From NCBI GenBank assembly GCA_046497275.1, contig JAWOFX010000054.1, positions 60,001 to 92,000 of the forward strand: a stretch of DNA of 32,000 bases. The letters are read 5' to 3'. Made by a program: the position numbers and the translations under genes. Below the pieces are notes generated by a model. The model was not told where the DNA came from, ran no database searches, and was given only the letters and a program-made list of their open reading frames with translations. Below, in pieces: positions 4,744-19,370 of the stretch (the first letter of the stretch is position 1; each line of letters opens with the position of its first letter). This stretch comes from Promethearchaeia archaeon (GTDB lineage: Archaea > Asgardarchaeota > Lokiarchaeia > Sigyniarchaeales > SOKP01).

Positions 4744-5201
4744 TCTCTATATTAATTTTAAAGTTAAGGATTGATGATTTAGAATAAATTAGCTTTATAA
4801 CGAATTTAGTGAATAAAAAAACACAATTTTAATAAGAAAGAGTAATCTTACACTGAACTTGAAGATTGAAAAGAGATTTTTTCTTTTTTATCTCTAATAA
4901 ATCCTTCTTAACATAAAGAATTTATATTAGATTGTTTTAAGAAATAATCTAATCTTATATGCATTCTTTATAAAACAAAATATTTAAATTCCTTAAACAG
5001 ATAAAAAAAGAATTTTAAATTAAACTCACTTGGAAATCAATAAAACGCGTTTTGGAAAATTTAGCTAATAATATTTCAATATATTTTAAATATACTTAAG
5101 GTAAAAACCAACAATAGAATAAATAGTTCTATTCTATACGAAATAGTAACAAATATAAGATGAATTTTTCTTATTTTTAATAAAAAGAAGGATTAATTTC
5201 T

Positions 5202-8457: not shown

Positions 8458-8706
8458 CTAAACTATATCTTTTAGATCTAAATCTAATTCTTCAGACATT
8501 TCTTCCCATTGAGAAATTGCTTCCATTGCTTGATCTTCATTCATAATCTCGATCGCGTATCCCGCGTGGACAATTACATATTTTCCTTTTTCAACATTTT
8601 GTACTAAAGCAATTATTACATTCTGTTTTATCCCATCAAAATCTACAGTTGCACTATTACCATCGGGAGAAATATCGATAATCTTTCCTGGTATTGCTAA
8701 ACACAT
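8458..8706 (-). CDS. hypC: Hydrogenase maturation chaperone HypC
   Basis: N-terminal MCLAIPGKI and YVIVHAGYAI. Confidence 0.95.
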   Translation of the reverse strand: MCLAIPGKIIDISPDGNSATVDFDGIKQNVIIALVQNVEKGKYVIVHAGYAIEIMNEDQAMEAISQWEEMSEELDLDLKDIV

Positions 8707-8823: not shown

Positions 8824-9630
8824 TTATTGAGAATTATCTTGTGTTTGCTTCGAATAGTAATTAATTATATCGTTTAACCAATTAACAATATTCTTCTTAG
8901 ACAGAAATTCTATATTATTTCTCAATCTTATTAATTCTGTAAGAATGAAAGAGGGATCTAATGGTCTCTTATGTTCTACAATTTCGAATAAGTACTCATT
9001 TGTTTTGTTAATCAAATTTTTAACATCTTCCGAATTCACTTTGAAATCTAAATACTCCATACTCTCAAGTTTAGAGATTAGATTGATTAAATTAAAAATT
9101 GCACTCGTTTCATTTGATTTAAACCAATTCTCTAAATGAAAATTTGTGGTAGGAAATTCAAATTTAGGAAGGACTTCTTCATAAGAATTATTGATTTTAA
9201 TTATTGATTTAATGTTTTTGAATAGGAAAGAGGGACACCACGCATATAGTTGCTTAATTACATTAAAATCTTCCATTTCGGAACTAAAAATTATTTTATG
9301 ATTTGTTTTTAAGAATCCAAAGGGAATAAGACATAAATAAAAATTTTCATTCGAAATAAAAAATTTTCTTGGTATTGTAAAATTTAACTGATGTTCTACG
9401 TCAATTGGATTATTCAATAAATCAAAATTTAGAGAATCAGAAATATTATATATATAAGAAAGCAACCCTTCAAATCCATTTATCTCTATTCTTAATAAGA
9501 ATTTTTTTGAGGATATGTCCAATTCTGAACTTGATTTCGATTTAAACTTCAAATTAAGTATTAAATGAGAATAATTTTCTAAATTTGGAAATAACCAAGG
9601 AACACTATTAGATATATCTTTAGCTATCAT
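8824..9630 (-). CDS. Hypothetical protein
   Basis: 268-aa ORF in very AT-rich DNA; no recognisable motif. Confidence 0.55.
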   Translation of the reverse strand: MIAKDISNSVPWLFPNLENYSHLILNLKFKSKSSSELDISSKKFLLRIEINGFEGLLSYIYNISDSLNFDLLNNPIDVEHQLNFTIPRKFFISNENFYLCLIPFGFLKTNHKIIFSSEMEDFNVIKQLYAWCPSFLFKNIKSIIKINNSYEEVLPKFEFPTTNFHLENWFKSNETSAIFNLINLISKLESMEYLDFKVNSEDVKNLINKTNEYLFEIVEHKRPLDPSFILTELIRLRNNIEFLSKKNIVNWLNDIINYYSKQTQDNSQ

Positions 9631-9882: not shown

Positions 9883-10761
9883 CTACAAACCTAAAGGTGC
9901 TATATCTCTCAATCTGGTTCTATGGTATTTTAATCCGATATCATCTGGATTAGCTCCCATAGCCAAAGCATATAATTCCGTTAAATATATCACTGGAATG
10001 TTATAGTCTTGCTCAAATTCTTTTGAAAGATTTCTTTGGTTTGTATCAAACTGTTGAAAACAAGCTGGACAGTTAACCACGATTACATCGGCACCGGCTT
10101 TGATAATACTGTCTAATTTACGTTTAAGATTATGCATCCCAACTTCTTCGTATGCATTAGAAACAGCAGAACCACAGCATAATACTTCTTCTTCATAATC
10201 AATCACAGTAGCGCCTGTTGCAGCACTTAATTCTTTGAGAGTTTTTGGTCTCATAGGATCATCATTAGTTTCCATCCATTCATGTGGTCTCATATAATGA
10301 CACCCGGGATGACACGCAACTTTAAGTCCTTCGAGAGGTTTAGTTATTGCTGATTTAATTTTATCAATACCAATATCTTTCTTTAATACATCGACAAAAT
10401 GCCTCACATCAATAGATCCTTTGTATTCCTTCCCTATCTTCGCGAGTTCTCCATTAATATGTTCTTTTTTGATACTATCGTGTTCTAACTGATGTTGAAC
10501 TCCCCTAAGAGTATTAGTACATCCATTACATAAGGAAATTATGTCCTTATTCTCTTCTTCAGCTAAGCAGATATTTCTTGCTCCTATAGCAAGCCACCCT
10601 TCATCATCAAAACTCTTGAATCCTGTTGGGTCTGGGCAACAAGTAAAGGGAGCTTCTGAAGTTTCGATTCCTAATTTATCAAAAACATATCGAGTAGAAG
10701 CTTCGATGAATGGAATTCTATTACCAATTGTGCATCCTTCAAACATTTTATATTCTGTCAT
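9883..10761 (-). CDS. hdrB: Heterodisulfide reductase subunit B (two CCG domains)
   Basis: EGC...TCCP...CNGC and PGCH...LCCGS...CPAC motifs. ATG at 10761 is preferred over the track's GTG at 10773 because GGTGA just upstream looks like an RBS. Confidence 0.9.
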   Translation of the reverse strand: MTEYKMFEGCTIGNRIPFIEASTRYVFDKLGIETSEAPFTCCPDPTGFKSFDDEGWLAIGARNICLAEEENKDIISLCNGCTNTLRGVQHQLEHDSIKKEHINGELAKIGKEYKGSIDVRHFVDVLKKDIGIDKIKSAITKPLEGLKVACHPGCHYMRPHEWMETNDDPMRPKTLKELSAATGATVIDYEEEVLCCGSAVSNAYEEVGMHNLKRKLDSIIKAGADVIVVNCPACFQQFDTNQRNLSKEFEQDYNIPVIYLTELYALAMGANPDDIGLKYHRTRLRDIAPLGL

Positions 10762-10765
10762 TTGG

Positions 10766-11278
10766 TTATTCACCTTCCTTTAATTTTTGATTCACATTCA
10801 TATTATTCAGAAGTGTTTTCAATTCTTCCGTATCTGGAGCGATAATATCTGGTAAGCCCATTCCTTCTCTTCTTCTTTCAATAGCGGATTGTGAGGGAAT
10901 TGCCTTACCGTAATCATACACCGCTTTCGCTTGTTGATATATAAATTCGGGTCCGTTTCCTTTAGCGATACTTCTATTTTTTAGAAATGTGAAAATCTCT
11001 GTAAGTTCAATATTTTGTGGGCATACTTCATCACATGTATCGCATACAGTGCAACCCCAAATAGCGATTTCATCAGCATTAAAAATACTATCCTCATAAC
11101 CCAATAAAGCATTTAGAATATTACTTCTAGGATTATATCTGTATTGATAGAATTCATCAGTCACATATGATACAGGACAATTATCTGTACATCTATTGCA
11201 TTGATAACAGTATTTTATTACATCAGATCCTTGATGATAATCCATAACTTGTTTCCTAAATTCAAAATCTATAACCAT
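10766..11278 (-). CDS. hdrC: Heterodisulfide reductase subunit C (2x[4Fe-4S])
   Basis: CYQCNRCTDNCP and CTVCDTCDEVCP ferredoxin motifs; immediately upstream of hdrB. Confidence 0.9.
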   Translation of the reverse strand: MVIDFEFRKQVMDYHQGSDVIKYCYQCNRCTDNCPVSYVTDEFYQYRYNPRSNILNALLGYEDSIFNADEIAIWGCTVCDTCDEVCPQNIELTEIFTFLKNRSIAKGNGPEFIYQQAKAVYDYGKAIPSQSAIERRREGMGLPDIIAPDTEELKTLLNNMNVNQKLKEGE

Positions 11279-11282
11279 ATTT

Positions 11283-11290
11283 GATCACTC
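11283..11290 (-). promoter_or_regulatory. Shine-Dalgarno-like site for hdrC (GAGTGATC)
   Basis: GTGATC is complementary to the usual archaeal 16S 3' tail (GAUCACC). The same hexamer precedes ATGs at 23348-23353 and 27747-27752. Confidence 0.5.
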
Positions 11291-11331
11291 ATTTTTGTTT
11301 TTTTCTTGTTTTAATTTCTATGTAAATTTTA

Positions 11332-11404
11332 GTTGGTTATAACCCTTGCATGGGCAGTCATATCCAATCTATTATTTGTATTGGATATTTCATCCTAAAC
11401 CAAC
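11332..11404 (-). promoter_or_regulatory. SECIS-like RNA hairpin (eukaryote/Loki type) for vhuU
   Basis: Minus strand: AUGA(11393-11390), A, AUAUCCAAU(11388-11380), loop ACAAAUAAUAG, AUUGGAUAU(11368-11360), GA(11359-11358). Perfect 9-bp upper stem, AAA 12 nt after AUGA, and a possible 7-bp lower stem GUUGGUU(11404-11398)/AACCAAC(11338-11332). Confidence 0.8.
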
Positions 11405-11542
11405 GTTTAATTTACGCGAGTAAACCTCTTTGCCCTCCTCATCAACAACAGTGATGTGGGCGGCACATGATAGTCAGCAATCATAACAACGCACTATCAT
11501 TTCTAAAAGATTTACTACTCCTTCGTCTATATCCTCACTCAT
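11390..11542 (-). CDS. vhuU: Selenocysteine-containing small hydrogenase subunit VhuU (C-terminal Ni-binding peptide of a split large subunit)
   Basis: Manual translation: MSEDIDEGVVNLLEMIVRCYDC(U)LSCAAHITVVDEEGKEVYSRKLNVGLG*. The in-frame TGA at 11476-11474 occupies the first Cys position of the DPCxxCxxH motif that VhuA lacks. GTGAT RBS upstream and SECIS-like hairpin downstream. Confidence 0.92.
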
Positions 11543-11591
11543 TTTTGTTTATCACTTTATAATTTTTCTATTTTTTAACCTCTAAGCAAGT

Positions 11592-12896
11592 TTAATCTAT
11601 CCATGGATCTGGTAAATTCAGACCTTCTAAGGCTTTATCTTCAAAAACTTGTTTTGCTGTATGCATCAATGATTTTTCGATTCCTGCGATATTGTGATTC
11701 GTGGCAACTAACAGATTTAATTTCTTACAAATACCTTCTGCATCAGACCAAATATGATACAAGAGTAAGCCTCGTGGAGCTTCTGTGACACCTACCCCAT
11801 TTCCTTCTCTTGGTTCCACATCTAAGGTTTTGCAATCAGGATTCACAATATCAGGATCCTCTAACAAGGTTTTTATTTGTTCGATTGCTTCTACAGTTTC
11901 TATTAATCGCGCCCAATGATATGCGAATGTGTGATGAGAAACTTCTCCGACTTTGTCTCTAAATTGTTGCAAAGCATCTTGAGCTAAGGGAGTTGCCATT
12001 CTATCCGCAGCGTTGATCATTGCCAGACAATTTGCGCGGTATATTCCCTCTGGGTACCCAGCTGGTTTATAATACATGTGGGTTGCATATGAATGTTCGG
12101 GAATATGCTCACCTAAGGCATCAAGATAATTCTGTACCTTATAGTCAGTTTTCTCTCCTTCAGGTGAAACTATACGGATATCACCTTCATAGATATCATG
12201 AACGCCATTTTTAGCCATTCCCAAATAATATGTAGGAACGACTCCTACATTAGCCACAACATCCCAATAGTCTTCGACAACCTTTAAGCCTATATCGACT
12301 GTTTTCTTGGTAAATTCAATTTGTTCATCGACTTGTTTTAAAAATTTGTCCCGTGCATCTTCATCCATTGGTTTCTTCATCCCACCAACGATTGCAGAAA
12401 TCGGATGCACAGACTTTCCACCAATTTCTTGACAAAGTTTTTGTCCGAAATCCATCATCTTTAACGCCATTTTGCCAACATCGGGCATCTTGTTTATAAC
12501 ATGAACAACGTTGCGTTTTGCAGGATCAGCAAACGGTCCTAACAAGAAATCTGGTGCTGCCAATGCATAGAAATGTAATATATGAGAAGCATACTGCTTT
12601 GCGTTCATTATTAATTGTCGCAATTTATAGGCTGGTTCCGGAATCTCCACACCCCACGCATCTTCTACTGCTTTTGTTGGAGTAATGTGATGGGGAATAG
12701 GACAAATCCCACAAATTCTTGGCGTGATTCGGGGTACATGTTCACAATACCGTCCCTCTACAAATTTTTCAAAAAATCGAGTAGATGTGATATTGAATTG
12801 AACATCCTTAACCTTTCCATCATCGTCAATAACAACATGTAAATCCCCGTGACCCTCTAATCGGGTGACTGGTTCAACTTCTATTTCCTTAACCAT
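11592..12896 (-). CDS. vhuA: F420-non-reducing (group 3c) hydrogenase large subunit, split form lacking the C-terminal CxxC
   Basis: EPVTRLEGHG, RFFEKF, PRICGICP (N-terminal Ni motif), TEAPRG and VATNHN. Ends EGLNLPDPWID with no DPCxxCxxH. Confidence 0.92.
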   Translation of the reverse strand: MVKEIEVEPVTRLEGHGDLHVVIDDDGKVKDVQFNITSTRFFEKFVEGRYCEHVPRITPRICGICPIPHHITPTKAVEDAWGVEIPEPAYKLRQLIMNAKQYASHILHFYALAAPDFLLGPFADPAKRNVVHVINKMPDVGKMALKMMDFGQKLCQEIGGKSVHPISAIVGGMKKPMDEDARDKFLKQVDEQIEFTKKTVDIGLKVVEDYWDVVANVGVVPTYYLGMAKNGVHDIYEGDIRIVSPEGEKTDYKVQNYLDALGEHIPEHSYATHMYYKPAGYPEGIYRANCLAMINAADRMATPLAQDALQQFRDKVGEVSHHTFAYHWARLIETVEAIEQIKTLLEDPDIVNPDCKTLDVEPREGNGVGVTEAPRGLLLYHIWSDAEGICKKLNLLVATNHNIAGIEKSLMHTAKQVFEDKALEGLNLPDPWID

Positions 12897-12897
12897 T

Positions 12898-14229
12898 TTA
12901 TTTATGCACCTCTTCTGTAAATTGTTTATTCTTTGCTAAGGTGAATTTCTCAAAGGTACCAATATGATCTTTTACTTGAGCTAGCAATTCATCCTTAGAT
13001 AAAGCAACATTAAATCCTTTAATTGCTATATCGGCAAATCTTGATGCTTGATCCGCAACCCATTCTGTTTGACCATAACAGCCAGTGCAGGGAGCGTTGA
13101 CCTTAATACACATACCACCGCATCCTGCTCTTGTGACTGGTCCCATACAAATATATCCTTGTTCAATGAAGCATTCTTCTTGGTTAGGGAGTCCTTCATA
13201 ATCTCTTTTTACTTTTGTCATAGTGGATTTGCTACCAATAATTCTGGGACACGTATCGCAGACATTAGATATTTCATGGAAGTCTGGATTATTTTTTAGG
13301 TATCCCAATAGGTTCGTGGCTACTTGTTTTGCTTTATCATTTAACTGTGTTAAAGGTGTTTCTGCTTCTCCTTTATTTTTTATTTGCTTCAATATGTCCG
13401 CTGAGAGATCGAATCCTGCCATTAATGGAACATTCAAATATAAAGATAAGAATTCATACATGGCTTTCTTCTCTCCCGTAGTAATATTAGAAAGATCTCT
13501 GGTTTTCTCAATTAGTTTATCTGCTCGTACATGTGCTGTTTTTGATGGACCAAAACATCCTACACATGGACTACCATTGCCAGGACATTTTAATGAGCAT
13601 CCAACACTTGTAATCGGTCCGAAACAGAGAGTCCCCTTATCGAGAATGCATCCCTCTTCATTTAATGGACATTGAGTACAGAATGAATATTCTTCGTTTG
13701 GAAAATCCTTTTGTCCAAGTAAGAATTGGACGGCACTCACAATTTGCTCTGGTTTTGGAGGACATCCAGAAATATAGGCATCTACATCAATGATATCATC
13801 TACCACAACCACGTATTCTCTAAATCCTGGGACGTGTTCTGTTGGCTCTTTTGGATTTTCATCAGTGATGCTTTCGGCTTCATGGAATTTTCTATCAACT
13901 AATTCTTGCTTTTTCCATTCATTGGCTAAGCCATGAACATTGCCATAGCAAGCGCAACTGCCGAAATTAATTATTAATTGACATTTTTTCCTCATTAGTT
14001 CTACACTTTCGTAATCCTCATTTGTTCGAACAGAACCTTCAATGAACCCAACTAAGACTTCCCCGTCTTGACGTGCTTTTAATGAATCAAGTTTATAGTC
14101 AACAACTGCTGGCCAGTAAACAAATTCCAGTGCTGGAAGAATATCTAACAATCCTAAATGTGCATTCAATAAGGACTGATGACATCCCCAACAATCACTG
14201 AGTTGCATGAAAGCTACTTTTACTGCCAT
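12898..14229 (-). CDS. vhuG: Group 3c hydrogenase small subunit, extended by a duplicated 8-Cys Fe-S module
   Basis: Proximal ligands C13/C16 (SDCWGC), C92 (GSCA) and C156 (SGCPP); two Cys-rich C-terminal modules (aa 184-225 and 324-384); 443 aa. Confidence 0.88.
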   Translation of the reverse strand: MAVKVAFMQLSDCWGCHQSLLNAHLGLLDILPALEFVYWPAVVDYKLDSLKARQDGEVLVGFIEGSVRTNEDYESVELMRKKCQLIINFGSCACYGNVHGLANEWKKQELVDRKFHEAESITDENPKEPTEHVPGFREYVVVVDDIIDVDAYISGCPPKPEQIVSAVQFLLGQKDFPNEEYSFCTQCPLNEEGCILDKGTLCFGPITSVGCSLKCPGNGSPCVGCFGPSKTAHVRADKLIEKTRDLSNITTGEKKAMYEFLSLYLNVPLMAGFDLSADILKQIKNKGEAETPLTQLNDKAKQVATNLLGYLKNNPDFHEISNVCDTCPRIIGSKSTMTKVKRDYEGLPNQEECFIEQGYICMGPVTRAGCGGMCIKVNAPCTGCYGQTEWVADQASRFADIAIKGFNVALSKDELLAQVKDHIGTFEKFTLAKNKQFTEEVHK

Positions 14230-14620: not shown

Positions 14621-15715
14621 TCATTCATCATTGTATTTATAATATATACTACACGATCCTTCTTGCGAGACCATACAAGGACCAATGGGATTGAGGGGAG
14701 TACATACTTTTCTAAAAAGTTTACATTCATAAGGATAAATTTTCCCTGTCATAACAAGATGGCATGAACACCCCAGAGGAATATCTTGAGCATTTTTAAT
14801 AGAAATATCAAACTTTTTATCAGCATCAAACTTTGAATATTGATCTCGTATTTCTAACCCTCCGTCCATAATCCTTCCAATGCCTCGCCATGGAGATGAG
14901 ACAGATTTGAATACATCTGAAATGATTGATTGTGCAATTGTATTGCCTTCTGGTTTCACGACTCGTTTGTATTCGTTTATTGTTTTATGATCTTGATTCT
15001 TGATTTGGTTTAAAAGTATTAAAATTGAAAGGAGAACATCATTAGGTTCAAAACCCGCTACCACATTCGGAACTTTATACGAATCAGAAAATAATTTGAA
15101 TGGTTTGAGCCCAATTATTGTCGCAACATGACCCGGAGAAATAAACCCATCTATATTTAATCTATCAATACTAATTAAAAGTTCTAAGGCGGCAGGAATG
15201 AGTTTATGTGCGCAAATAACAGAAAAGTTGGAAGGAGGAGTGTTTTTTATCTCATATCCAATTAAAGGAACCGTTGTTTCAAATCCTATAGCAAAAAATA
15301 TTACTTCTTTATTAGGATTTTCTCTGGCAATTTTAACTGCATCATTTGGTCCATAGACAATTCTAACATCAGCACCTTCAGCTTTTAATTCTGCCAATGA
15401 TATATTTGTAGCCGGAACTCGTATCATATCCCCGAAAGAAGTTATGATTGTATCATCTCTCTTTCCCAATTGGATTGCTTTATCTATATCTGCTGCGGGA
15501 CATACGCAAACTGGACATCCGGGGCCAGAAACTATCTCTAAATCCTCAGGAAGAAGTGATCTAAGTCCAAATTTAGATATTGTGTGTTCGTGTGTTCCAC
15601 ACACATGCATTAGCTTTATAGTTTTACCTAAAGAATTCATATGAGAATTAATCAAATTCACGATCTTTTTTGTGAAATCTTTATTTCTTAAAACTTGTAG
15701 ACTAGGAATTTCCAT
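14621..15715 (-). CDS. hypD: Hydrogenase maturation protein HypD
   Basis: MHVCGTHE, GPGCPVC, GFETT, PGHV and C-terminal GPCMVSQEGSC. Confidence 0.95.
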   Translation of the reverse strand: MEIPSLQVLRNKDFTKKIVNLINSHMNSLGKTIKLMHVCGTHEHTISKFGLRSLLPEDLEIVSGPGCPVCVCPAADIDKAIQLGKRDDTIITSFGDMIRVPATNISLAELKAEGADVRIVYGPNDAVKIARENPNKEVIFFAIGFETTVPLIGYEIKNTPPSNFSVICAHKLIPAALELLISIDRLNIDGFISPGHVATIIGLKPFKLFSDSYKVPNVVAGFEPNDVLLSILILLNQIKNQDHKTINEYKRVVKPEGNTIAQSIISDVFKSVSSPWRGIGRIMDGGLEIRDQYSKFDADKKFDISIKNAQDIPLGCSCHLVMTGKIYPYECKLFRKVCTPLNPIGPCMVSQEGSCSIYYKYNDE

Positions 15716-15842: not shown

Positions 15843-16892
15843 TTAACAAATTCTCGGTATTGGTTCTCCTAATGGCATATCAATAAATCGAGTTCCACCC
15901 ACAATTGTCTCTAATAAAACTCTTTTTGGATTTTCTTTCTTAACATCCCCTATAATTTTCGCATCTTCTCCATTTTTAATCGATTGAATTTTCTGTAGAA
16001 TATCCTGAGCATATTTGGGATCAACTGCTAATAAAGCTCGTCCTTCACTGGCAATATTGTAAGGGTCTAATCCCAACATATCACATATAGCCCTCACTTG
16101 ATTTTTAATCGGAACTGTCTCTTCCTTTATCCAAATACTCACATTAGATTTACTTGCCCAATGGTTTAAAGCACCTGAAATTCCTCCTCGTGTAGGATCT
16201 TTCATCGCATGAATATGATTTTTATTAATATAAGGTCTTAGATTTTCAATGATATCTGTCAATAAATTTACATCTGATTTTAAGTCAGTTGATATATTTA
16301 AACCTTCTCGTTTTGCCATTAATGAAGTTCCATGGTCGCCAATTGTGCCTGTTATAATGATTTTATCTCCACTTTTTAAGTTATCATCGGTTATTCGCAG
16401 ATTTTTATCCTTAAATCCTATTCCCGAGGTTGATATAATGATTTCATTTAGACTGTTTTTGGGCATTACTTTTGTATCCCCTGCAATTATTCCAATATTA
16501 CCTTCCTCGGCAGTTTTATTAAATGATTTCACAATTTTTTCAAGTTTAGCAAACTCAAATCCCTCTTCGATTATAAAAGAAGATGTTAATGCAATAGGAG
16601 TGGCACCCATCATTAATAGATCATTTACCGTTCCACATATACTTAATTTGCCCAAATCTCCTCCTGGAAAAAACAATGGATATACCGTATGACCATCTGC
16701 GGTTACTACAATTTCCTTATCATAATTTTCAAGTGGAATAGTTGCCCCATCATCCAACTCTTCAACTCCTATTCCATATGAAATTTTCTTTTTTTTTATA
16801 TCCTTTGTAATGAACTTTATTAGTTCCTCTTGAAGGATCCCACCAGCCCCATGTGCTAATCGAACTTTCGAAAGATTTTCCTCTCTATCCAT
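15843..16892 (-). CDS. hypE: Carbamoyl dehydratase HypE
   Basis: AHGAGG, PLFFPGGDLGKLSICGTVNDL, DPTRGG and C-terminal PRIC. Confidence 0.95.
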   Translation of the reverse strand: MDREENLSKVRLAHGAGGILQEELIKFITKDIKKKKISYGIGVEELDDGATIPLENYDKEIVVTADGHTVYPLFFPGGDLGKLSICGTVNDLLMMGATPIALTSSFIIEEGFEFAKLEKIVKSFNKTAEEGNIGIIAGDTKVMPKNSLNEIIISTSGIGFKDKNLRITDDNLKSGDKIIITGTIGDHGTSLMAKREGLNISTDLKSDVNLLTDIIENLRPYINKNHIHAMKDPTRGGISGALNHWASKSNVSIWIKEETVPIKNQVRAICDMLGLDPYNIASEGRALLAVDPKYAQDILQKIQSIKNGEDAKIIGDVKKENPKRVLLETIVGGTRFIDMPLGEPIPRIC

Positions 16893-16973: not shown

Positions 16974-19370
16974 ATGAGTAAAAATACCCTTCAAACTGTG
17001 GAAATCAATATAACAGGAATTGTGCAAGGAGTTGGGTTTCGACCTTTCCTCTTTAATTTGGCACGTGAACATAATCTCAATGGATACGTACTAAATAGAG
17101 GAAATGCAGGTGTGAGATTAATTTTACAAGGAAACTCAAATCATATTTCACAATTTATTGAAGATATTGAGGAAAAAAAGCCAAGAATCGCTTATATTGA
17201 AAATATTGATGTTAATGAATTAAAGAACTCTGAAGAATATTCAAAACTTAAAATTAAGAAAAGTGAACAAGGAAGAGGGATTAGTTTAACCTTACCTGCG
17301 GATGTTGCAGTATGTGAAAAGTGCTTAAAAGAGATGAGAAACCCGAGTTTGAATAGATATTATCAATACCCATTTATCGCATGTGCTGTATGTGGACCAA
17401 GATTTACATCGGTAAAATCCTTACCTTACGATAGAAAACGAACTACAATTGAGGAGTTTCCTTTTTGTGCAGAATGCCTAAATGAATATAGAGATTTTGA
17501 CAATAGACGATTTCATGCCCAAACTTATAGTTGTGCTAAATGCGGTCCAAATTATCAACTTTTTGATAGAGAAGGAAAATTAATTAAAGAAAAAGCCATT
17601 TCAGAAATTCTCGAAGAGTCCACTAATCGCATTAAAAATGGAGAGATTGTAGCGGTAAAAGGTATTGGAGGGGTTCATTTAGTATGCTTAGCAGATAATG
17701 ATGAGATCATATTAAAACTTAGGAAACGTAAAAAAAAGAGAAAATACAAACCATTTGCCTTAATGGTCCCGAATCTCGAAATAATAAATGATTATTTTAT
17801 AATATCAGAGAAAGAAAAAGAAATTATACAATCTTTTAGAAGGCCTATCGTTTTGTTAAAAAAGAGTTATAAATTCCCTCAATCAAATATTAGTGAATTG
17901 GTAGCTCCTGGATTAAATAATATTGGATTTATGTTACCATATACTGGCATTCATCACCTCCTTTTTGACTATATAGGCAAAAAACCATTAATCTATACAA
18001 GTGGGAATAAATCAAATATACCAATGGGAATAGAAAATGAGAAAATTGTAAACCAATTAAATGAAGTTGCGGATTTTTTTCTTCTGCATGACAGGAAAAT
18101 ATATCAGAGAGCTGATGATAGTGTTTTAAGGATTCATAATAATAAAGTTAAATTGATTAGAAGATCACGAGGCTATGTTCCAGAATATATACCTCTTCCA
18201 TTTGAAGTTGAAATTCCTGGAGCCTTAGCAACGGGTCCTGAACTAAATGTAACGGGAGCTGTTTTGAGGAGAAATCGTATATTTCCAACTCAACATATTG
18301 GAAATATTAATAATCTTGAAACTTTTGATTTTTTAAAAAACGCTTTATTTCATATGAAAGAACTACTTCAAATTAAAAATGAAGAAATAAAATTTATTGC
18401 TTGTGATGCTCATCCTGTATTTATTACTTCCCAATTTGCTAAAGAAACATCTGAAAAGTTTGAAATTCCTATATATCCAGTTCAACATCATTACTCTCAT
18501 ATCTTAGGTTTGATGGCAGAAAACAATATAAAACCAAAAGAGAAAATTATTGGAATTAGTACTGATGGAGTTGGGTATGGTGATGATGGGAATATCTGGG
18601 GCGGAGAGATATTACTTTGTAATTACGATAATTTTCAGAGACTTGGTCATTTAGAGTACCAACCTATGATAGGAGGAGATAGATGTGCCAAATATCCCGC
18701 TAGAATGGCTGCTTCAATTCTATTGAAAATTAAGGGGATTGGAGAGGCTCGAAAAATTTTTAAAAAAATCAAGCTGGCAAAAGATTTGGAATATGGAGAA
18801 TCAGAATTAGACACCCTTATAAATCAATTCTCAAGGGCAGATTATAAGTTTCCTGCTGAAAATATACCTTTATCAAGCTCCACAGGAAGAATTTTTGATA
18901 CCGTATCATATTTATTAGGGGCATGCAGTATTAAGACCTATAGGGGGGAGCCAGCCATGAGATTGGAAGGATTAGCAACGAAAGGAAATGCTGAAAATGT
19001 TAATTTAGAGATAAATTATTCGAATAAAAAGGGAATTTCAATAATCAATACTTCAAAATTGATAATGAATATTTTAGAATTGATTAAAAATAATCAAAAT
19101 AAAAAGGCAGACATAGCCGCAAAATTCCAAGAAGAAATTGGAAAAGCTTTTGCGAGTGTTGCAATAGAACACGCCAAGAAATTCGATATAAAAAAAATAG
19201 GTCTTTCTGGGGGTGTCGCCTATAATTTTGCCTTTTCTAGCAAAGTGAAAGAAGAGATTTTAAATGCTAAATTTGAATTTTTAGAACATAACAAAATACC
19301 TCCTGGAGATGCAGGTATTAGCTCTGGGCAATTAATAAACGGAATCTTCAGATATAAGGAATATTTTTAA
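16974..19370 (+). CDS. hypF: Carbamoyltransferase HypF
   Basis: Acylphosphatase-like GIVQGVGFRPF, Zn fingers (CEKC, CAVC, CAEC, CAKC), KGIGG, QHHYSH, DGVGYGDDG, GDAGISSGQ; divergent from hypE. Confidence 0.95.
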   Translation: MSKNTLQTVEINITGIVQGVGFRPFLFNLAREHNLNGYVLNRGNAGVRLILQGNSNHISQFIEDIEEKKPRIAYIENIDVNELKNSEEYSKLKIKKSEQGRGISLTLPADVAVCEKCLKEMRNPSLNRYYQYPFIACAVCGPRFTSVKSLPYDRKRTTIEEFPFCAECLNEYRDFDNRRFHAQTYSCAKCGPNYQLFDREGKLIKEKAISEILEESTNRIKNGEIVAVKGIGGVHLVCLADNDEIILKLRKRKKKRKYKPFALMVPNLEIINDYFIISEKEKEIIQSFRRPIVLLKKSYKFPQSNISELVAPGLNNIGFMLPYTGIHHLLFDYIGKKPLIYTSGNKSNIPMGIENEKIVNQLNEVADFFLLHDRKIYQRADDSVLRIHNNKVKLIRRSRGYVPEYIPLPFEVEIPGALATGPELNVTGAVLRRNRIFPTQHIGNINNLETFDFLKNALFHMKELLQIKNEEIKFIACDAHPVFITSQFAKETSEKFEIPIYPVQHHYSHILGLMAENNIKPKEKIIGISTDGVGYGDDGNIWGGEILLCNYDNFQRLGHLEYQPMIGGDRCAKYPARMAASILLKIKGIGEARKIFKKIKLAKDLEYGESELDTLINQFSRADYKFPAENIPLSSSTGRIFDTVSYLLGACSIKTYRGEPAMRLEGLATKGNAENVNLEINYSNKKGISIINTSKLIMNILELIKNNQNKKADIAAKFQEEIGKAFASVAIEHAKKFDIKKIGLSGGVAYNFAFSSKVKEEILNAKFEFLEHNKIPPGDAGISSGQLINGIFRYKEYF

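Follow-up and report, generated by a model that had tools for sequence, protein, structure and literature searches.

We report here that the minus-strand frame lying downstream of vhuA in an Asgard archaeal contig is very probably the Lokiarchaeia vhuU gene, in which UGA codon 23 is read as selenocysteine (Sec) by means of a lokiSECIS element, completing a group 3c [NiFeSe] hydrogenase. The gene is located in a window of 32,000 nucleotides (the whole stretch of DNA that was analysed, with a G+C content of roughly 27-39%) that comes from a 3.85 Mb draft genome, and the host is a Lokiarchaeia/Promethearchaeota MAG, i.e. a non-methanogenic Asgard archaeon and no Methanococcus. A preliminary description of this DNA had proposed a hidden selenoprotein VhuU completing a split hydrogenase, and this proposal was confirmed as real, as correctly interpreted and as already known for Loki-type Asgard archaea. 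Indeed, the accessible text of Mariotti et al. 2016 (PMC4989117) describes a Lokiarchaeota VhuU family with its Sec codon and the lokiSECIS, and the accessible text of a 2024 survey (PMC11227280) reports the FrhA/MvhA/VhuU selenoprotein family in 68.3% of the Sec-using Asgard archaea. The features of the locus are collected in Table 1.

Table 1. Genes and RNA element of the vhu-hdr-hyp region, in positions of the window
Feature	Positions	Strand	Basis
vhuU CDS	11390-11542	-	50 codons + stop; VhuU NF041786 match
lokiSECIS (type I eSECIS-like)	11326-11407	-	model R1, covariation
vhuA, group 3c [NiFe] large subunit without C-terminal Ni-binding segment	11592-12896	-	NCBIfam, PDB
vhuG-like small subunit, 443 aa	12898-14229	-	VhuG 9sfi_I in two stretches; Pfam Oxidored_q6
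hdrC-like 4Fe-4S dicluster subunit	10766-11278	-	TIGR03290 E 1.6e-22; Fer4 families
hdrB-like subunit (CCG domains)	9883-10773	-	TIGR03288 293.7 bits; PF02754
hypD, hydrogenase maturation	14621-15715	-	over curated cut-off
hypE	15843-16892	-	over curated cut-off
hypF	16974-19370	+	over curated cut-off
hypC	8458-8706	-	over curated cut-off
268-residue ORF between hdrB and hypC	8824-9630	-	ORF only

The vhuA ORF encodes 434 aa with the N-terminal Ni motif RICGICPIPHH and ends in ...LPDPWID, before the second Ni-binding motif: as first claimed, the CxxC is missing, and D-P-C-x-x-C-x-x-H is absent from the C-terminus of the protein. Forty-nine nt separate its stop from the start of vhuU. This second frame, which had been proposed to supply the motif as DC-TGA-LSCAAH, does so with exactly the proposed limits, its ATG being at 11542-11540, the in-frame TGA (codon 23) at 11476-11474, the codon of His29 at 11458-11456 and the terminal TGA stop at 11392-11390. 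With TGA written as U, the 50 residues read MSEDIDEGVVNLLEMIVRCYDC-U-LSCAAH followed by ITVVDEEGKEVYSRKLNVGLG; the peptide thus leads from its initial M to VRCYDC-U-LSCAAH and closes with a tail of 21 residues (ITVV...NVGLG) after His29, the expected site of maturation cleavage by analogy with known systems. Between 11279 and 11591 the minus strand has no listed ORF of at least 30 aa under translation table 11, so that the gene would escape a standard ORF caller, and it is plausible that vhuU had been missed in this way.

The identity of the two products was established from profiles and solved structures. The NCBIfam VhuU profile NF041786 matches the small peptide with an E-value of 7e-16 and 57.7 bits, under its curated equivalog cut-off of 70 bits, and the NCBIfam VhuA profile matches VhuA over positions 3-417/418 with 488 bits, under its curated cut-off of 800 bits. 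As NF041786 fits methanococcal sequences, according to its description and to the controls used, we filed vhuU as a divergent orthologue, as is also done in the accessible text of PMC4989117. VhuA aligns with PDB chain 9sfi_g (E 6e-130, over 3-417/418) and residues 5-30 of VhuU with the 27-aa VhuU chain 9sfi_M, so that each of the two proteins has its own counterpart (chains g and M) in the Vhu structure 9SFI, which is presented in the accessible text of PMC13518236 as the Methanococcus maripaludis Hdr-Vhu-Fwd assembly. The position of the UGA is that of the selenocysteine in the solved VhuU, where the residue is written X (9sfi_M). On the fused 473-aa MvhA 5odc_F, VhuA covers residues 3-414 and VhuU residues 422-453; end to end, the two ORFs thus make up a whole group 3c large subunit. 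For the C-terminal segment R-x-Y-D-P-(C/U)-x-x-C-x-x-H, VhuU aligns with 5odc_F 422-449 and 9sw2_F 423-448; it retains Arg, Asp, Sec/Cys, Cys and His and has Cys in place of Pro. As expected of a VhuU, it is a separate small ORF accompanying a truncated VhuA, with an in-frame UGA where the motif has its first Cys. Among the species-representative genomes, 80 relatives of VhuA (82-91% identity) were retrieved, most of them from Promethearchaeota/Promethearchaeia (Loki-type Asgard), the remainder being labelled uncultured archaeon, other Asgard lineage, Thermoplasmata and, in one case, a bacterium.

Comparison of related loci argues that UGA codon 23 is decoded. In all the 76 related loci that reach that far, vhuA is followed by a small ORF whose TGA stands at this very codon, and the paralogue of vhuU on contig C100 of the same genome has TGA there too; such conservation of the codon (76/76) means that the ORF is not a chance one. 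Of the distinct sequences, 77/77 have TGA at the Sec position, and the two Cys codons flanking it are mixtures of TGT and TGC. The codons past the TGA are clearly under purifying selection, change being concentrated at third positions: variability at codon positions 1/2/3 is 0/0/0.24 in LSCAAH and 0.11/0.03/0.34 in the 21-codon tail. UGA nevertheless still serves as a stop in this genome, as it terminates 3 of the 28 large ORFs of the window, so there is no global reassignment. The idea that an error of assembly or sequencing turned a TGC or TGT into this TGA, the product being an ordinary Cys-type peptide, found no support even though the window comes from a draft of 188 contigs, and its probability is practically nil: the TGA is shared by all 77 distinct sequences, from independent assemblies, next to Cys codons that do mix TGT and TGC, and a D-C-TGA-L-S-C-A-x-H pattern is present in 138 of 400 genomes of the phylum. 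It could also be argued that the TGA is a true stop, with the large subunit a split pseudogene in decay and the frame after it a relic, given that the vhuU frame is interrupted under table 11 and that only two of the four Ni-Fe ligands are in VhuA itself. We consider this extremely improbable, since the post-TGA codons are under purifying selection, the arrangement is kept in 76 loci of many MAGs with two copies per genome, a covarying SECIS lies downstream and hyp maturation genes surround the operon.

The SECIS that would direct Sec insertion at codon 23 begins 83 nt 3' of this codon and scores 94.8 bits (E 6.5e-21) with model R1. Its AUGA core (11393-11390) contains the vhuU stop codon as its UGA and is followed by one extra A, then by a perfect 9 bp helix II (11388-11380 with 11368-11360) closed by an apical loop of 11 nt (ACAAAUAAUAG, 11379-11369), and by GA at 11359-11358. 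Helix I, the lower stem, pairs the Val-Gly-Leu codons GUUGGUU (11404-11398) with AACCAAC (11338-11332) in the 3' UTR. This is the lokiSECIS layout (AUGA, a stem of about 9 bp, an 11-nt loop with an A-rich start and an AG end, then GA or AA) of the accessible text of PMC4989117 and PMC11227280, and the lower stem shows the pairs U/C-GG with C-C/U-A/G that are reported for frhA/VhuU genes in the accessible text of PMC11227280. Over 76 distinct sequences, helix II is 95.6% paired with compensatory changes in 8 of its 9 pairs and helix I 98.5% paired with compensatory changes in 5 of 7, these counts being taken from a model-guided alignment, which leans towards the model; in controls with the 3' partner slid by one to three columns, pairing was at most 50%. 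In the Val and Gly codons it is the synonymous third positions that covary with the UTR arm (GUA...UAC, GGC...GCC, GUC...GAC), and the pairing of helix I may account for the near invariance of the last part of a tail whose cleavage is expected. MAFFT had misregistered helix I in three relatives that stop at UAG, an error that the model-guided alignment corrected. Folding of the 3' region as a single sequence recovers helix II and not helix I, which comes from comparison only. An Rfam scan of 10700-11700 with E-values up to 10 returned no SECIS family and only chance snoRNA, CRISPR and miRNA matches; we therefore take the Loki element to be outside what this library recognises.

In the whole genome, model R1, which was built from the compared sequences, finds exactly three elements, namely those of both vhuU copies and one behind an hdrA-vhuD pair; the lokiSECIS layout occurs 3' of two vhuD genes, each with two in-frame UGA codons. 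The SECIS of SelD was not found with model R1, and the accessible text of PMC11227280 ascribes to selD genes mainly another form, type II. A bacterial-type SECIS located right after the UGA was also considered and dropped, since SepSecS was found and SelA is absent.

Two further observations concern this region of RNA. First, in locus L032 (L032:4845-5058) a TAA stop 7 codons past the motif His shortens the tail and the downstream SECIS is retained, and in L067, L070 and L098 (near 4980-5066) a 2-nt insertion creates a UAG stop and puts the AUGA out of frame, the lower stem still pairing. Taken together, these loci suggest that the protein sequence of the tail is dispensable, as it seems, and that it is the RNA that is kept. 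Second, a third hairpin, short and G+C-rich (11355-11342, minus strand; GCCC, a six-base loop holding GC, GGGU) lies between the GA and the lower stem, inside the latter, making a three-way junction. By a fixed definition it is present in 8 of the 28 strict lokiSECIS-like matches in the genome, including both vhuU and both vhuD, as compared with 7 of 1105 looser matches and 0.7% of random positions; outside the window it is seen at L114:1549-1563 and near C109 18331, C100 58512, C167 665, C124 11486 and C185 9275. Because its stem is almost constant, the hairpin cannot be confirmed by covariation. The searchable text of PMC4989117 and PMC11227280 (without figures and supplements) contains no mention of this hairpin.

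The genome possesses the archaeal/eukaryal Sec system, as had been predicted from the recoded codon: tRNA-Sec, PSTK, SepSecS, SelB/EFSec and SelD are present, and SelA was not found. The tRNA-Sec scores 49.4 bits in Infernal for an Rfam threshold of 47 and SepSecS 486 bits, over its cut-off. A SelB/EFSec-like gene (233.9 for a cut-off of 242.25) adjoins tRNA-Sec and a PSTK-like gene scores 173 for a cut-off of 290.5, both matches being under their cut-offs yet full-length or appropriately placed. SelD, over its cut-off, has one in-frame TGA and is therefore itself a Sec-containing protein (G000:C114:629-1420, minus strand, L013). The tRNA-Sec match is found at the ends of two contigs, C33 (L001:11-129) and C165 (L002:63-181), with SepSecS beside it on one and the SelB/EFSec-like gene on the other, and the two contigs are probably continuous at this point, as parts of one Sec gene cluster. 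The match found by Infernal spans 119 nt for a 91-position model and is missed by ARAGORN, which makes an insertion or an intron possible; within the window ARAGORN called no tRNA. A weaker second PSTK-like match (C35:1794-2345, L103), broken by TGA and TAA, may be a decayed copy. Both objections named in the preliminary description, a TGA misread for TGC/TGT and a genome without tRNA-Sec, SelB and SelD, are answered by the results given so far.

In other organisms short of selenium, UGA is known to be read through at a low level as Cys or Trp, and on this ground codon 23 could be thought to be read, by near-cognate decoding, as a standard amino acid instead of Sec. We regard this as very unlikely in view of the dedicated covarying SECIS at the expected distance, of the complete Sec pathway that includes a Sec-containing SelD, and of the coincidence of the codon with the Sec site of the solved M. 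maripaludis VhuU.

Compared with known systems, the closest is Lokiarchaeota VhuU.1 with its relatives which, as far as they are described in the accessible text of PMC4989117 and PMC11227280, share with the present gene about 50 codons with one Sec, the host clade, the AUGA, the 9-bp stem, the 11-nt loop with an A start and an AG end, and the lower-stem pairs; in both, the AUGA lies within the CDS and doubles as the stop codon through its UGA. Nothing of substance separates them: here GA and not AA follows the upper stem, both versions being found in relatives, and one extra A stands between AUGA and the stem. The likeness to Methanococcus VhuU (M. voltae, M. maripaludis), which had also been put forward, holds in part. 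It holds for the small separate gene after a truncated vhuA and for the C-terminal Ni motif, in which Sec takes the place of the first Cys and x-S-C-A-A-H comes next; the solved methanococcal chain M, with its 27 residues, has no long tail like the 21-residue one encoded here. It does not hold for the sequence before Sec, which is R-C-Y-D-C-U in the present gene and R-A-Y-D-P-U in Methanococcus, nor for the SECIS, eukaryote-like in the former (lokiSECIS) and of methanococcal type in the latter. Moreover, the methanococcal enzyme feeds CoM-S-S-CoB reduction in a methanogen, whereas the Loki host is a non-methanogenic Asgard archaeon. MvhA of Methanothermococcus thermolithotrophicus (5ODC) belongs to the same group 3c, VhuA and VhuU together covering 3-453 of its 473 residues, but it is one polypeptide with Cys for Sec and a D-P-C motif. 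The periplasmic [NiFeSe] enzymes of the HysA type (5JSH) also have Sec as the terminal Ni ligand in a C-terminal motif; the match is weak, the alignment with VhuA being good in the N-terminal third only, and HysA is a fused bacterial group 1 enzyme with a bacterial SECIS within its CDS.

The residue directly before Sec sets the Loki peptides apart. In their R-C-(Y/F)-D-C-U motif, Cys22 (11477-11479, minus strand) precedes Sec immediately and is invariant in the 77 sequences, and Cys19 (11486-11488, minus strand) stands in place of Ala, whereas the solved relatives all have R-A-Y-D-P-(C/U). At the DNA level, the D-P-U version was found in 2 genomes only (L115 and L116, from one genus), against the 138 genomes with D-C-U, and reversed-pattern controls over the phylum genomes gave no matches. 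Since a Cys replaces the Pro of D-P-C/U, the geometry of the active site may differ from that of the solved enzymes. We tentatively suggest, as a possibility that we ourselves find doubtful, that the Asgard VhuU motif is systematically unlike that of every characterised [NiFe] or [NiFeSe] hydrogenase and that its Cys-Sec dyad could act as a redox lock or as an aid to metal insertion. If the dyad formed a reversible selenenylsulfide, like the Cys-Sec pair of thioredoxin reductase, such a lock could protect or gate the Ni-Se site. The dyad is not mentioned in the searchable text (figures and supplements apart) of PMC4989117 and PMC11227280.

The genes surrounding vhuU are those of a group 3c Mvh/Vhu hydrogenase with its heterodisulfide reductase partners. 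On the minus strand the order is hypD, vhuG-like, vhuA, vhuU, hdrC, hdrB, the 268-residue ORF (without match in Pfam or NCBIfam) and hypC, with hypE and hypF just outside the operon; the hdrC-like gene lies directly 3' of the vhuU SECIS. The set of genes of such a complex, with the N-terminal VhuA motif R-x-C-G-x-C-x-x-x-H, VhuG-like, hdrC, hdrB and VhuD, is present in the genome, hdrA-vhuD being on contig C171, a further vhuD on C109 and a gene for a HycI-family protease on C168. The two stretches by which the vhuG-like protein aligns with VhuG are 3-192 (with 5-185 of 9sfi_I) and 323-431 (with 176-276). We also observed that this protein is longer (443 aa, and 443-492 aa in relatives) than the solved VhuG/MvhG (288-308 aa) and holds a Cys-rich insert of about 130 residues, roughly 193-322, in which the Fe-S cluster-binding motif C-x2-C ... 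C-x-G-P ... G-C-x3-C ... C-x2-C is repeated; the sequence suggests at least one extra cluster. The hydrogenase-hdr operon (10001-14000) has a G+C of 0.35-0.39, its flanks 0.26-0.31.

The same genome harbours a second vhu operon (L108:3824-6860, minus strand, i.e. G000:C100, about 67320-70360), whose VhuA is 96% identical and whose order is vhuG-vhuA-hdrC-hdrB-vhuU, vhuU and its SECIS being placed after hdrCB, about 1.5 kb from vhuA. Each of the two layouts is seen again in relatives (e.g. L022, L025, L028, L030, L043, L048, L050, L068), sometimes within one MAG, and the occurrence of vhuU-SECIS in two operon layouts as a mobile module might repay a specialist's look; no mention of the two layouts was found in the searchable text of PMC4989117 and PMC11227280, which excludes figures and supplements. 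A search of the genome with PF00374 gave no [NiFe] large subunits beyond the two vhu copies. On that evidence, the [NiFe] hydrogenases of this genome are selenium-dependent.

By homology with these systems, we propose the following scheme for Sec insertion into VhuU, its processing, its assembly and the catalytic direction of the enzyme. The Sec machinery of archaeal/eukaryal type, whose genes lie elsewhere in the genome, would supply charged tRNA for delivery by the EFSec-like factor, and codon 23 would be translated through under the direction of the SECIS. Termination would then occur at the UGA within the SECIS core, which fits the minimal-distance argument made in the accessible text of PMC4989117. 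The peptide would dock on VhuA, as in the solved methanococcal enzyme, Sec23 and Cys26 of VhuU binding the Ni-Fe centre with Cys62 and Cys65 of VhuA, and the 21 residues after His29 would be cut off by a HycI-type protease. The predicted partners are VhuG and HdrCB, from the same operon, and HdrA-VhuD, encoded elsewhere and also selenoproteins, and the complex would be an H2-dependent or H2-evolving, electron-bifurcating one. Since the host is no methanogen, its likely role is not in methanogenesis but is that of a Mvh/Vhu-HdrABC bifurcating or confurcating H2 enzyme, such as is proposed for Asgard syntrophs in the accessible text of PMC7015854.

With respect to Mariotti et al. 2016 and the 2024 Asgard selenoproteome survey, in so far as their accessible text goes, the Cys-Sec dyad, the two-layout vhuU-SECIS module and the third hairpin might merit a specialist's look; otherwise the discovery adds nothing to them. 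For the organism, it indicates that H2 metabolism is selenium-dependent. Without Sec-aware gene calling both large subunits look truncated, and the organism would wrongly be taken to have no functional H2 enzyme. According to the accessible text of PMC7015854, H2 metabolism is central to models of Asgard syntrophy and of eukaryogenesis.
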